Of a stretch of 64,000 bases of DNA, positions 20,863 to 32,141 are shown in pieces (the first letter of the stretch is position 1; each line of letters opens with the position of its first letter). The position numbers and the translations under genes were made by a program. Under the pieces are notes generated by a model that did not search any database, was not told the origin of the DNA, and worked only from the letters and a program-made list of their open reading frames with translations. Source of the DNA: Myxococcota bacterium (lineage in GTDB: Bacteria; Myxococcota; B64-G9); contig DATKYQ010000002.1 of NCBI GenBank assembly GCA_035528415.1, positions 8,176-72,175 on the forward strand, in the 5' to 3' direction.

Positions 20863-21345
20863 TCAAGGATTGCCGATCGGAACCTGTAGCCCGCTGGCGG
20901 TGGTTGTGGTGGGTGACTGGGGTACCTGGAACTTCTCGCCCTTCTTGAGCGTGATCACGGCCAGCTTCACGATGCCGGCGGTATGGACGGTGTCTATTAC
21001 CTTTACCGACTCGCCGTAGTTGGCCTCGGGGTCTATGTTGAGGAAGATCGTCTTCTCGCGCCGGTTCTTGAAAATCTCGGCAAGTTTATTGCCAAGCTCT
21101 TGGCGGTTTACCTTGTTCTGGTTCAGGAAGACCGAGTTGTCCTTGGTGAAGGTCAAGACTACCTGGTCCTGGGTGACGTCGGGGGGCAGGTCGACCTCGG
21201 CCTTCTTGGGCACGTCGAGCCTGTGCTGCATCAGCATCATCGGGGTAACCACCATGAAGATGATCAACAACACCAACAGGATGTCGATCAGCGGAGTGAC
21301 GTTCATGTCCGACGAGACACCCCTTTTTCCAACCTGCATGGACAT
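20863..21345 (-). CDS. exbD: Biopolymer transport protein ExbD/TolR
   Basis: NVTPLIDILLVLLIIFMV TM segment typical of ExbD/TolR. Confidence 0.85.
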   Translation of the reverse strand: MSMQVGKRGVSSDMNVTPLIDILLVLLIIFMVVTPMMLMQHRLDVPKKAEVDLPPDVTQDQVVLTFTKDNSVFLNQNKVNRQELGNKLAEIFKNRREKTIFLNIDPEANYGESVKVIDTVHTAGIVKLAVITLKKGEKFQVPQSPTTTTASGLQVPIGNP

Positions 21346-21348
21346 GTA

Positions 21349-21786
21349 CTAGCCCTTCTTCTTGATTTCCTCGGTGGCCAGCTTGACCTGCTGGAAGCCG
21401 GCCTTGTGGCAGACTTCCATCACCTCGCGCACCGAACCGTAGTTGAGCCTTTTATCGCCCTTTAGGTAGATTTCCTTGGAGGGGTCCTTGCGCATCTCGT
21501 CCATCAGGCGCGTGGCCAGGTTGTTTTTGTCGACCGGGCTCTGCCCCAGGTAGACGTTGTAGGAGAAAGTCGCCCCGCGCTTGAGGTACTCCACGGAGAC
21601 GATCAGATCCTTGCCGGTGTCGCTTTCCTTTTCGGGCTGCGACGCCAGGGGAAGCTGGACCGCCTTGCCCTTTTGCAGCATCGGGGTGACCACCATGAAG
21701 ATGATCAGCAGCACCAGCATGACGTCAACCAGGGGCGTGACGTTGATCTCCGAGTTAAACCCCTTGGTGTCAACCTTCATCGACAT
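21349..21786 (-). CDS. exbD: Biopolymer transport protein ExbD/TolR (second copy)
   Basis: INVTPLVDVMLVLLIIFMVVTP motif. Tandem with the first copy. Confidence 0.85.
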   Translation of the reverse strand: MSMKVDTKGFNSEINVTPLVDVMLVLLIIFMVVTPMLQKGKAVQLPLASQPEKESDTGKDLIVSVEYLKRGATFSYNVYLGQSPVDKNNLATRLMDEMRKDPSKEIYLKGDKRLNYGSVREVMEVCHKAGFQQVKLATEEIKKKG

Positions 21787-21821
21787 TGCCGGACACTCTC
21801 CGTTTGAGGGTCAGTCGGGCG

Positions 21822-29346: not shown

Positions 29347-29375
29347 AGCGCCTGAGATATGAAAGGAGGCCCAAG

Positions 29376-32087
29376 GTGAAACGAAATCGAATCACGACCC
29401 TGGCGTCGGTTTTGGTTGTCTTGCTTTCAGTTGCCCTGGCCATGCCCGCGCTGGCGGATCAGACCGGCAAGATGAAAGGAACCGTCTATGACCCCGACGG
29501 CGTGCCCTTGGCGGGCGTGACCGTCACTATCAGCAGCAAGAACATGATGGGCAAGAGAAAGATCCAGACATCCGAGGAAGGCAGTTTTCTGTTCTTCGGC
29601 CTGCCCCCCGGCAAGTACTCCATCGAGATCGAGCAATCGGGTTTCTTGCCATTCAAACAGGAGCAACTGATCATCAACATCGGCGGCACGGCCTCGCTCG
29701 ACATCCTGCTCGAGGTGCCCACCGCCGAGGAAACCGTGGTGGTCACCGCCAAGCGGCCGGTGGTCGACAAGGAAAAGACCAGCCTGGGCCAGAACTTCGA
29801 CGACGAGTTCCTCGAGGAGGTCCCGGTGGCGCGTAGTTACCAGAGCGTCGCCCAGCTGGCCCCGGGCGTGGTCGGCGGTTCCAACCCCAACGTCCACGGC
29901 GGCTCGCTGTACGGCAACCAGTACCTGGTTGACGGCGTCAACACCACCGACCCCTCGACCAACACCTTCGCCGCCAACTTCAACTACGACGCCATCAAGG
30001 AAGTCCAGGTGTTGACCGGCGGGCTGGATGCCGAGTACGGCCAGGCCACCGGCGGGATCATCAACCTGGTTACCAAGAGCGGCGGCAACGAGTTTCACGC
30101 CGACACCTCGTTCTACATGACTCCCGACTGGCTGCGCCTGCGCGAAGACTTCGAGAAGGACACCGTGGGCGAGTCGAATGCCTACAACTTCAACCTCAAT
30201 GCCGGCGGCCCGATCATCAAGGACAAGCTGTGGTACTTCGCATCGGTGCAGTTCAACTACAGTAAGTCGTTCATCGCCCCGACCGAGAACTTCTTCGACC
30301 CGACCGATCCCGATCTATACCAGCACCCGGGCCAAAGATGGCTGAGCTTCTACTACCTGGGCAAGCTGACCTACCAGATGACCGACAAGCACAAGCTGAC
30401 CTTCATGTTCCAGGGCGACCCGGCCTGGATCGACAACGTCTCGCAGGGGTCCACCATTGCTCCCGAGGCAGAGGAGAAGCGCTACCAGTTCGGCGGTTTC
30501 TACTCCCTGGCCTGGGAGGCGCTGTGGTCCAAGAACCTGTTCCAGCGCACCCAGGTCGGCCTGATGCGCTCGGGCATGAAGCAGTCGCCGATGTCGGGCT
30601 GTACCGATGTGGACAACCCCGACTGCCGGGCCCACTCTGACGCGGACACCGGGCTGAGCACCGGCAACTACACGCGCAACTCGATCGATCACCGCTGGCG
30701 GCTGCAGGTCGACTCGGCCTGGACCTACTACCTGGACGACTTTCTGGGCGACCATGAGATCAAGGCCGGCTGGAACTTCGCCCGTACCTGGTCTGATTGG
30801 GATTTCAAGTATAACGGCGGCGGCATGTACACCGACAAGAGCGGGCGGCCCTACCGCTTCACAGAAATCGTCCCCGACCCGGTCACGGGCAGAAAAGGCT
30901 TTTTGACCGAGGACATCGGCTACACGCTGGGCGTCTTTTTGCAGGACTCCTGGAAGATTTTCAAGACCTTGACCTTCAAGCCGGGTGTGCGCATCGACTA
31001 CGTGCGCATGGGGGGCAAGGAGGGCACCACGGTGGAATACGCCGCGGCCAGCCCGCGCATCAACCTGGTCTGGGACGCCACCGGCGACGGCAAGACCGTC
31101 GTCAGGGCCGGTTACAACCGCTACGTCGATCCCGGCTGGTTCAACGTGTCTTCCTTCCTGGGCAACAAACAGGCCTGGACGCGCACCATGGAGTACAACC
31201 CGGCCACGCAGCAGTATGACATCTTCTTCTCCGAGTCCAATAACCCCAACGAGCAGTCCGGGGTGATCGGCTCGACCAACAACACCGCCCCGCACTCCGA
31301 CGAGTTCTCGGTGCAGGTCGAGCGCGAGTTGTTCACCGACTTCTCGCTGGGGATCAACGGGATCTACCGCGAGTTCAAGTACCTGTTCGAGGACGTCGAG
31401 GTCAACGAAATCTGGAACCAGGACGGCTCGGACCTGATCGGCTACAAGAGCTCGCGCGAGAACTACATCTACCAGACCCAGAACCCGCGCGAGGCCTGGC
31501 GGCGTTACTGGGGCTTCGAGGTCGTGGCCCGTAAGGCCTTCAGCGACAACTGGCAGATGAACGCCTCGTACACATACTCGCGCTCAATGGGCGCGCCCGA
31601 GGGTTACTGGTCTTCCTACATGGACAACCCCCGACAGGATTCCTATATGTGGAGCTTTGCCTCGTTCGACCGGCGGCACGTGATCAAGATCGACGGCTCC
31701 TACCACCTGCCCTGGGGCGTCGAGTTGGGCGCCAGCGTTTGGTGGGCCACGGGCGCTCCCTACTCGAAGTACTTCAAGGACAGCTACTACGGGGCGTACT
31801 ACATGCTGCAAGCCCCGGCCGGATTCGACCCTGATCACCGGGGCAACGAGTACTGGAACCGCACCCCGGACGTTATGTACATCAGCCTGAAGATAGTCTG
31901 GGATCTGAAGGAGCTGACCGGCCAGCAGATCGACATCATCGGCTATGTCAACGATGTCCTGAACCTGCGCTACAAGACCGACCTCGAGACCAGCGCCTAT
32001 CCCGCGGGCAGCGCCCGCGAGTATGGCAAGTACTACGGTCTGGGCAGCGGCCTGTCGGCACAACTCGGCCTTCGTTACCGCTACTAG
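29376..32087 (+). CDS. Oar-like TonB-dependent outer-membrane receptor with N-terminal carboxypeptidase-regulatory-like domain
   Basis: GTG start with AAGGAGG RBS. Signal peptide. CarboxypepD_reg-like domain (GTVYDPDGVPLAGVTVTISS...GKYSIEIEQSGF). TonB-dependent receptor plug and barrel. C-terminal ...GLRYRY aromatic terminus. Confidence 0.85.
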   Translation: MKRNRITTLASVLVVLLSVALAMPALADQTGKMKGTVYDPDGVPLAGVTVTISSKNMMGKRKIQTSEEGSFLFFGLPPGKYSIEIEQSGFLPFKQEQLIINIGGTASLDILLEVPTAEETVVVTAKRPVVDKEKTSLGQNFDDEFLEEVPVARSYQSVAQLAPGVVGGSNPNVHGGSLYGNQYLVDGVNTTDPSTNTFAANFNYDAIKEVQVLTGGLDAEYGQATGGIINLVTKSGGNEFHADTSFYMTPDWLRLREDFEKDTVGESNAYNFNLNAGGPIIKDKLWYFASVQFNYSKSFIAPTENFFDPTDPDLYQHPGQRWLSFYYLGKLTYQMTDKHKLTFMFQGDPAWIDNVSQGSTIAPEAEEKRYQFGGFYSLAWEALWSKNLFQRTQVGLMRSGMKQSPMSGCTDVDNPDCRAHSDADTGLSTGNYTRNSIDHRWRLQVDSAWTYYLDDFLGDHEIKAGWNFARTWSDWDFKYNGGGMYTDKSGRPYRFTEIVPDPVTGRKGFLTEDIGYTLGVFLQDSWKIFKTLTFKPGVRIDYVRMGGKEGTTVEYAAASPRINLVWDATGDGKTVVRAGYNRYVDPGWFNVSSFLGNKQAWTRTMEYNPATQQYDIFFSESNNPNEQSGVIGSTNNTAPHSDEFSVQVERELFTDFSLGINGIYREFKYLFEDVEVNEIWNQDGSDLIGYKSSRENYIYQTQNPREAWRRYWGFEVVARKAFSDNWQMNASYTYSRSMGAPEGYWSSYMDNPRQDSYMWSFASFDRRHVIKIDGSYHLPWGVELGASVWWATGAPYSKYFKDSYYGAYYMLQAPAGFDPDHRGNEYWNRTPDVMYISLKIVWDLKELTGQQIDIIGYVNDVLNLRYKTDLETSAYPAGSAREYGKYYGLGSGLSAQLGLRYRY

Positions 32088-32109
32088 CTAGGCACGCTAA
32101 CCGCTCAAA

Positions 32110-32141
32110 GGCCGCCCCCCTGACGGGGGACGGCCTTTTTT
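32110..32141 (+). terminator. Rho-independent terminator
   Basis: GGCCGCCCCCC-TGAC-GGGGGACGGCC hairpin (10 bp, one mismatch) followed by TTTTTTATTT, 22 nt after the TBDT stop. Confidence 0.8.

Follow-up and report, generated by a model that had tools for sequence, protein, structure and literature searches.

A giant thrombospondin type 3 repeat lipoprotein encoded beside an Oar-type TonB-dependent transporter in a Myxococcota bacterium: a predicted member of a transporter-adjacent lipoprotein family

Introduction

A good understanding of complexes between a TonB-dependent transporter (TBDT) and a lipoprotein has been reached only for Bacteroidota and a handful of pathogens. In the Neisseria pairs TbpB-TbpA, LbpB-LbpA and HpuA-HpuB the lipoprotein gene precedes the TBDT gene, and a macromolecular ligand is captured for TonB-dependent import; in TbpAB capture of the substrate falls to the lipoprotein and its import to the TBDT. 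For SusCD, BtuBG and XusAB, too, stable complexes of TBDT and lipoprotein that serve import have been described (PMC10404256, PMC13142918). The best-known Oar-type TBDT of the Myxococcota is Oar of Myxococcus xanthus, which together with TonB1, ExbB1, ExbD1 and ExbD2 is needed for secretion of PopC, both in M. xanthus and in reconstituted Escherichia coli (PMC6434023); the claim of export rests on this one system, the cargo of which is encoded elsewhere. The present study concerns a stretch of 64,000 nucleotides from a Myxococcota bacterium (assembly GCA_035528415.1, contig DATKYQ010000002.1, positions 8,176 to 72,175 of the forward strand), hereafter the window, in which a giant lipoprotein with calcium-binding thrombospondin type 3 (TSP3) repeats is encoded directly ahead of a TBDT with the Oar architecture and divergently from a set of Ton genes.

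The pair is a conserved unit, and its TBDT has plug, barrel and TonB box intact for coupling to TonB. Comparisons at the sequence level indicate that the TSP3 protein is an enlarged member of a family of TBDT-adjacent lipoproteins, because its N-terminal module is homologous to those of other members, its gene adjoins that of a TBDT, and the type of partner follows the TBDT tree. Literature searches, which also covered surface lipoproteins of Myxococcota, turned up no paper on a TSP3 lipoprotein paired with a TBDT, nor any account of Oar-type TBDTs having a family of partner lipoproteins outside Bacteroidota.

Results and Discussion

Conservation of the lipoprotein-transporter pair

Region 20863-32145 of the window contains two divergent transcription units. 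The plus-strand unit comprises the TSP3 lipoprotein gene, a gap of 29 nt, the TBDT gene and a terminator; the gap holds a GGAGG ribosome-binding site and no hairpin. An earlier note on this DNA had put the spacing at 30 bp and the length of the lipoprotein at 1553 residues, both near the measured 29 nt and 1551 residues, and every element it described is present, either exactly where it was placed or a few bases away. The pair consists of the following features:

24691 (ATG)-29346 (stop), plus strand: TSP3 lipoprotein, 1551 aa, with TSP_3 repeats and lipobox LLAC
24691-24762, plus strand: signal peptide and lipobox LLAC with Cys24, assigned from the sequence
24763-25515, plus strand: N-module, aa 25-275, the proposed TBDT-docking part
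25516-25806, plus strand: rest of the second beta domain with a small Cys-knot insert, aa 276-372, from the AlphaFold2 model; kept in orthologues
25813-28521, plus strand: calcium-binding TSP3 repeat region, aa 375-1277 (PF02412, E 2.5e-46)
26257-26760, plus strand: Cys-rich insert of ~170 aa within the repeats, aa 523-690; kept in orthologues
28543-29343, plus strand: two C-terminal collagen-binding/PPC-like beta-sandwiches, aa 1285-1551 (AlphaFold2 pLDDT 94.5)
29376 (GTG)-32087, plus strand: TBDT of the Oar architecture, 903 aa (CarboxypepD_reg, Plug, OMP_b-brl_4)

The genome scan gave 80 hits, all of them metagenome-assembled genomes. A TSP3-type lipoprotein gene lies directly upstream of the TBDT gene in loci L005, L006, L007, L011, L012 and L013, the TBDTs of which are 54-65% identical to that of the window, and also in L008 and L014 (TBDT 41%) and in L017 (35%). 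The reverse search, starting from the lipoprotein, leads to homologues P0134 and P0136 (42-43% identity), which are again followed by Oar-type TBDTs of 898-900 aa. The co-conservation expected from the earlier note is thereby seen in both search directions, and it extends to altered genomic contexts.

A trivial explanation would be that the gene order has merely been inherited in one lineage and that the adjacency is meaningless. Close orthologues do share a whole housekeeping neighbourhood, with gap-pgk-tpiA-secG on one side and DUF4388-PhoH-HD-YbeY-Lnt on the other. However, the pair outlasts replacement of this neighbourhood in L007, L008, L014 and L017, where the flanks are different, and homologous partners stand beside distant TBDTs, with start and stop codons that overlap or lie 4 bp apart. 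We give this explanation hardly any probability; the motif statistics, the TBDT tree and the hhalign homology presented below largely refute it, and it is essentially excluded.

The partner gene of L007 (7498-9997; TBDT 54% identity) looks split into open reading frames (ORFs) at 7498-7959 and 8030-9997, and its product is devoid of most TSP3 repeats and of the C-terminal domains. A frameshift, a fault in the assembly or a naturally short variant could account for this structure.

A candidate family of transporter-adjacent lipoproteins

An exhaustive HMMER search among 1.84 billion proteins revealed 22 representatives of the window-type N-module, compared with a single protein in a word-indexed search with the N-domain. 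More distant relatives were found through the genomic context. At loci with a TBDT 30-35% identical to that of the window, the gene 0-18 bp past the TBDT stop codon encodes a lipoprotein of 300-900 aa that carries the same post-lipobox element as the window protein, C-x(4-15, acidic)-h-x-G-x-h-x-h-P, as in LVAC-DVPEKGIDHTVLSGTVTIPP of L027 and LAGC-SEFDEGVNAENVHGTVRIPK of L064. The strict motif is present in 21 adjacent ORFs, against 5 of ~3000 other ORFs; in a relaxed form it is found in 41 of 189 adjacent ORFs, against a background of 1.4%. In addition, an hhalign comparison of the window-type N-module (first ~275 residues) with eight lipoproteins of ~490 aa, the genes of which begin 0-4 bp after related TBDT genes, gave a match with a probability of 97.2% (E 4e-11, 228 columns). 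The TSP3 lipoprotein itself combines the features of the proposed partner family, i.e., lipobox, acidic tether, strand, N-module and adjacency to a TBDT.

The type of partner is clade-specific on a quick neighbour-joining tree of 85 TBDTs, calculated without support values. One clade has the TSP3 partner upstream; its sister clade has another upstream lipoprotein, with the start C-x(8-12)-G-x-V-V-Y-D, and both clades have an adjacent Ton set. A large clade has a downstream motif lipoprotein in 33 of 45 loci, and the Acidobacteriota outgroup has one in 1 of 17. Some downstream partners carry MopE-type metal-binding motifs in place of TSP3 repeats, so that metal- or calcium-binding Cys-rich stalks (TSP3, MopE-type) appear as recurrent add-ons to the partner lipoproteins. 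Across the family, the anchor-proximal part is conserved and the distal part varies. The N-module is likely to be the docking part, with the TSP3 stalk and the collagen-binding-like tips as add-ons. The family evidence fits the logic of a TBDT with a substrate-capturing lipoprotein, which is well documented, at least as well as it fits export.

Two further groups of lipoproteins were observed around these TBDTs. The upstream lipoprotein of the sister clade (L009:8511-9989, L061:8472-9974, L076:8680-9933 and L016:7434-9938) starts with C-x(8-12, acidic)-G-x-V-[VI]-Y-[DE], looks unrelated and belongs to no Pfam family. In one TBDT subclade a second conserved lipoprotein is encoded by the third gene, after TBDT and partner (L054:13639-14613, L058:13553-14491, L075:13711-14790 and seven more loci). 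These third-gene proteins start with C-D-[YL]-S-G-D-[WF]-L-F, comprise 300-400 aa with 35-50% mutual identity, and have no Pfam match; the layout is utilisome-like.

The transporter and the function of the pair

The TBDT begins with a signal peptide and ends in the C-terminal residues RYRY. Its plug is recognised by PF07715 (33.2 bits, cut-off 23.9), and its barrel by PF00593 (27.9 bits, cut-off 27) and by the Oar-type profile PF25183 (130.3 bits, cut-off 30); OMP_b-brl_4 is matched at E 1e-37. The sequence ETVVVTA at aa 119-125 (nt 29730-29750), which we take to be the TonB box by its likeness to the boxes of BtuB, FhuA and FepA, is conserved in the orthologues with at least 50% identity (P0001-P0027). 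Residues 33-112 form a CarboxypepD_reg extension (PF13620, 61.4 bits, E 1e-16, cut-off 32.3), and an extension of this kind ahead of the TonB box defines the Oar subclass (PMC6434023). In agreement with the earlier note, the protein falls outside the characterised siderophore and vitamin transporters. The NCBIfam models of characterised siderophore, vitamin and PQQ TBDT families score 16-35 bits, against cut-offs of 223-1200; the top matches, PqqU (35.3 bits, cut-off 1200) and TonB-siderophore (33.9 bits, cut-off 223.5), cover the plug region only. Likewise, the only sequence match in the PDB is to the plug region of YncD/PqqU (E 1.7e-5).

Our tentative first choice, which we put somewhat short of an even chance, is that the pair would form a capture-and-import complex analogous to SusCD, BtuBG, XusAB and TbpAB, with an unrelated family of partners and powered by the adjacent Ton motor. 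Import is preferred because the well-studied, tightly co-encoded TBDT-lipoprotein pairs are stable surface complexes for capture and import. The lipoprotein and the TBDT would then be two subunits of one outer-membrane machine, and the TonB-ExbB-ExbD-ExbD motor encoded next door would energise the TBDT via its TonB box. The N-module, ~12 residues from the lipid anchor, is predicted to dock on the TBDT, with the lipoprotein facing outward. The calcium-stiffened, disulfide-rich TSP3 stalk could hold the two collagen-binding-like domains off the cell, where they may bind a polymeric or particulate substrate, while the TBDT would import captured or released material, with peptides or some other nutrient or metal in short supply as the probable cargo.

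Several observations weigh against capture and import. The neighbourhood common to close orthologues means that the synteny is partly plain collinearity. The unit lacks genes for a hydrolase, a periplasmic binding protein and an inner-membrane transporter, in contrast to typical uptake loci. In bacteria, TSP3 repeats may also reside in the periplasm, for instance those of OmpA-like proteins. Finally, an N-module that is conserved and a C-terminal payload that varies would, by analogy, also fit a secretion-recognition domain such as the TPS domain of two-partner secretion.

The last point bears on export or display of the lipoprotein, an explanation that is possible although in our judgement unlikely. 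The TBDT, pulled by TonB, would translocate or flip the lipoprotein over the outer membrane, as Oar does for PopC; recognition would rest on the N-module, with the TSP3/collagen-binding part as the passenger, a calcium-dependent adhesin or matrix protein. The set of genes is like that required for PopC secretion, with a TBDT, TonB, ExbB and two ExbD proteins, and the organisation of N-module and payload recalls that of TpsA. The signature at the lipid anchor is also suggestive. Pullulanase is held at the inner membrane by an Asp at position +2 until its own exporter takes over. The A-C-D motif at the lipobox, which places an Asp at +2 directly behind the lipid-modified Cys, is near-invariant in the TSP3 orthologues. 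In E. coli, an Asp at this position is the signal that retains lipoproteins in the inner membrane (PMC3222651). However, this residue is not conserved in the wider partner family. Moreover, the cargo, with 1551 residues, 96 Cys and 24 calcium sites, would once oxidised be hard to thread via a 22-strand barrel. The earlier note had proposed that the TBDT serves to secrete or display the TSP3 protein; this proposal is without direct support, and 28% of all TBDTs, most of them importers and those of the SusC type included, have the Oar architecture (PMC6434023).

Domain organisation of the TSP3 lipoprotein

The N-module combines a short acidic tether and the strand VRGTVRIP with a collagen-binding/PPC-like beta-sandwich, and extends into a second beta domain. 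AlphaFold2 models of the two ends of the lipoprotein, built on ~20 orthologues, are confident, and they predict folds like the collagen-binding domain of ColG at both ends, in accordance with a PPC/collagen-binding fold. In a Foldseek search with the C-terminal pair the top match is the tandem collagen-binding domain of ColG (5iku, E 7e-14), the single domains being 24-26% identical. The earlier note had assigned a PPC-like domain to the N-terminus and two PPC domains to the C-terminus. This assignment stands at the level of the fold but not at that of Pfam: neither the N- nor the C-terminal pieces match PF04151 (PPC), even at E <= 10, and the lipoprotein has no Pfam match other than TSP_3.

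The central part is dominated by the TSP3 repeats. TSP_3 (PF02412) scores 155.5 bits, against a cut-off of 25, in eight stretches, and the region contains 24 DxDxDGxxD loops, where the earlier note had counted about 20, broken by Cys-rich inserts. The protein has 96 Cys and 16% Asp. A relationship to the cell-cell cohesion protein MtsC (NF047638) was considered and rejected, as the score of 280.8 bits is below the cut-off of 350, the match covers the TSP3 repeats only, and there is no MYXO-CTERM tail; the protein ends in its PPC-like domain, without a C-terminal sorting tail. The Cys-rich insert at aa 523-690 has no Pfam or PDB sequence match. It is apparently helical, and because it is retained even in the short variant of L007 (655 aa), it may be a core functional element.

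The repeats also raise the question of the side of the membrane on which the lipoprotein resides. It might lie on the inner leaflet of the outer membrane, touching the CarboxypepD_reg extension of the TBDT, and function there as a calcium-dependent tether, buffer or regulator. TSP3 repeats of OmpA-like proteins and TraB face the periplasm, as does the N-terminal extension of the TBDT, and an inward orientation is the rule among the outer-membrane lipoproteins of proteobacteria. Nevertheless, the periplasm would hardly offer room for a stalk of ~900 residues and three collagen-binding-like domains, and collagen-binding/PPC folds are typical of extracellular proteins, which makes a periplasmic location improbable in our view.

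The Ton operon and the divergent intergenic region

The motor that would drive the proposed capture-and-import complex is encoded by the minus-strand unit, in the transcription order TPR (tetratricopeptide repeat) lipoprotein, TonB, ExbB, ExbD, ExbD. The earlier note was right that the Ton set is divergent from the pair, but it wrote the genes in an order opposite to that of transcription. The operon, the intergenic region and the terminator are as follows:

20863-21345, minus strand: ExbD paralogue 2, 160 aa, last gene of the operon (PF02472, E 3e-24)
21349-21786, minus strand: ExbD paralogue 1, 145 aa (PF02472, E 3e-27)
21822-22562, minus strand: ExbB/TolQ-family proton channel, 246 aa (PF01618, E 1e-28)
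22596-23339, minus strand: TonB, 247 aa (PF03544, E 5e-13; TIGR01352, 36.7 bits, cut-off 27.1)
23397-24458, minus strand: TPR lipoprotein, 353 aa, lipobox LGAC, first gene of the operon (TPR_11, E 3e-13)
24459-24690, no strand: divergent promoter region, 43% GC against ~62% around it
32107-32145, plus strand: intrinsic terminator at the end of the two-gene unit, hairpin and U-run

PF01618, two copies of PF02472 and PF03544 are encoded together, all above their cut-offs, as in a Ton energising complex. TonB shows an N-terminal membrane anchor, a Pro-rich spacer and a TonB_C domain. All NCBIfam equivalog models of ExbB/TolQ and ExbD/TolR remain below cut-off for the operon proteins: the channel scores 125 bits with TolQ and 98 bits with ExbB, and the top match of ExbD paralogue 1 is TolR with 114 bits (cut-off 127). 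The set is named Ton-type, without a finer subfamily, because a protein with a TonB_C domain is present. It is divergent and upstream in close relatives, and co-directional and downstream (TBDT-TonB-ExbB-ExbD-ExbD) in L008, L009, L014, L019, L022 and L061; no Ton set is found near the L007 pair. ExbD paralogue 2 is kept beside the pair in L005, L006, L013, L091 and L092. The TPR lipoprotein is found in close orthologous loci and is missing from the co-directional sets of L008, L009 and L061.

The Agl-Glt gliding machinery offers an analogy for another conceivable role of the motor: its pull on the TBDT would serve to expose a surface adhesin, to retain it or to put it under tension. The locus encodes one ExbB/TolQ-like protein, two ExbD/TolR-like proteins, a TonB-like protein and a TPR lipoprotein. 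Such a set resembles AglRQS together with GltG/J and the TPR Glt proteins, and the collagen-binding-like tips and the long calcium stalk would suit an adhesin. The Glt outer-membrane platform governs the accessibility and retention of the lipoprotein CglB (PMC9946355). On the other hand, no Glt-type proteins were identified, the plug and TonB box of the TBDT are canonical and typical of transporters, and most members of the partner family are small (300-560 aa) and lack adhesin-like repeats. A force-coupled adhesin consequently has a low probability in our assessment. A broader proposal is that a whole clade of Myxococcota-type TBDTs works as obligate complexes with the partner-lipoprotein family and that, in the TSP3 branch, the Ton motor deploys or operates a giant calcium-dependent surface arm, possibly binding lanthanides or other metals; we consider it rather doubtful. 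If true, it would represent a TonB-powered display or adhesion device, and would extend the sole precedent of Oar and PopC to a co-encoded cargo.

The AT-rich intergenic region of ~230 bp pointed out in the earlier note is borne out by its GC content. The TTGCAT repeats reported there exist, with ATGCAA at 24503 and TTGCAT at 24517 and 24569, but as boxes for a regulator they do not hold up and look instead like -35 boxes. Six orthologous intergenic regions have only three elements in common: TGCAAG (24504-24509; CTTGCA on the minus strand), CTTGC(A) and the ribosome-binding site GGAGGCC. CTTGC (24568-24572) is invariant, and the base that follows it (24573) is A in five of the six. The spacing between the two conserved hexamers differs among the six regions, and from their sequences they are likely to be the -35 boxes of two divergent promoters. 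A repeated TTGCAT operator was rejected, given conservation only as TGCAAG and CTTGC(A) and the variable spacing. An additional palindrome in the window, ATGCAA-N8-TTGCAT (24503-24522), is not conserved in the orthologues. A search for Fur or other regulator boxes, as the earlier note had advised, gave no Fur box: the Fur consensus has no match with three or fewer mismatches anywhere in the window, and the best intergenic match is 10/19. GGAGGCC (24681-24687) is invariant 5' of the lipoprotein gene in the six orthologues, and as an extended ribosome-binding site it is used by both genes of the pair (also at 29366-29372). At the other end of the unit, the strong terminator noted previously is confirmed by its hairpin and U-run, a 63-nt stretch folding at -30.5 kcal/mol (z -4.6).

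Directly past this terminator lies the sole tRNA gene of the window, tRNA-Leu(GAG) at 32201-32285. It is followed at 32378-34834 by a gene for a TPR membrane protein of 818 aa with a long, low-complexity N-terminal part rich in Lys, Glu and Asp; the AT skew of 0.64 at 32500-33000 is due to this part. The protein is kept downstream of the pair in L001, L006, L091 and L092, followed by a DUF4388/PatA_N protein. Further away, 44848-46181 encodes an AbiEi antitoxin/AbiEii nucleotidyltransferase toxin pair (PADLOC AbiEi, E 4e-27; Pfam AbiEii, E 4e-17); L006 likewise has an AbiEi gene (22345-22709), just past lnt.

Comparison with known systems

Within the Myxococcota, Oar (MXAN_1450) resembles the window TBDT in its CarboxypepD_reg extension, plug, TonB box and large barrel, and in a Ton set with two ExbD proteins; the comparison is one of domain architecture and Ton gene set. 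Oar is reported to exceed the length of typical TBDTs by 300-400 aa, whereas the window TBDT has 903 aa, and neither PopC as a neighbour of oar nor a partner lipoprotein is reported (PMC6434023). The Agl-Glt/CglB system shares a proton-driven Tol/Ton-like motor, the setting in Myxococcota, and barrels that control a surface lipoprotein adhesin (PMC9946355). It differs in that no Glt homology is found in the window, that CglB has a VWA domain, and that the Glt barrels are not plug-containing TBDTs. Despite the likeness in fold, the collagen-binding domains of the clostridial collagenases ColG and ColH are only 14-26% identical to those of the lipoprotein, which has no catalytic domain, and collagen binding is not implied.

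The Bacteroidota systems, i.e., SusCD utilisomes, BtuB-BtuG and XusA-XusB, share with the window locus a carboxypeptidase-regulatory-like extension of the TBDT, one or more co-encoded lipoproteins and a partner type that co-varies with the transporter. In the clade of the window, in contrast, the partner gene is upstream, the partner has a giant TSP3 stalk, and no glycan or vitamin genes are nearby. Nor is the pair of the SusC/SusD kind, as the partner is not SusD-like (TPR fold) and its N-module is a beta-sandwich. To our knowledge, no signal for the export of surface lipoproteins has been defined in Myxococcota, unlike in the Bacteroidota systems. The Neisseria pairs have the same gene order as the window, lipoprotein and then TBDT; their lipoprotein folds are unrelated, and no Slam-type translocator is seen at the window locus.

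The locus and the partner family provide a TBDT that is genetically linked to its partner and has a Ton motor dedicated to it, which makes import versus export by Oar-type TBDTs directly testable, and they assign a context to a protein family without a Pfam domain. A TBDT combined with its cognate lipoprotein and a Ton motor belongs to a known kind of system; what is new with respect to the systems above is the partner family, the giant TSP3 form and the taxonomic setting.

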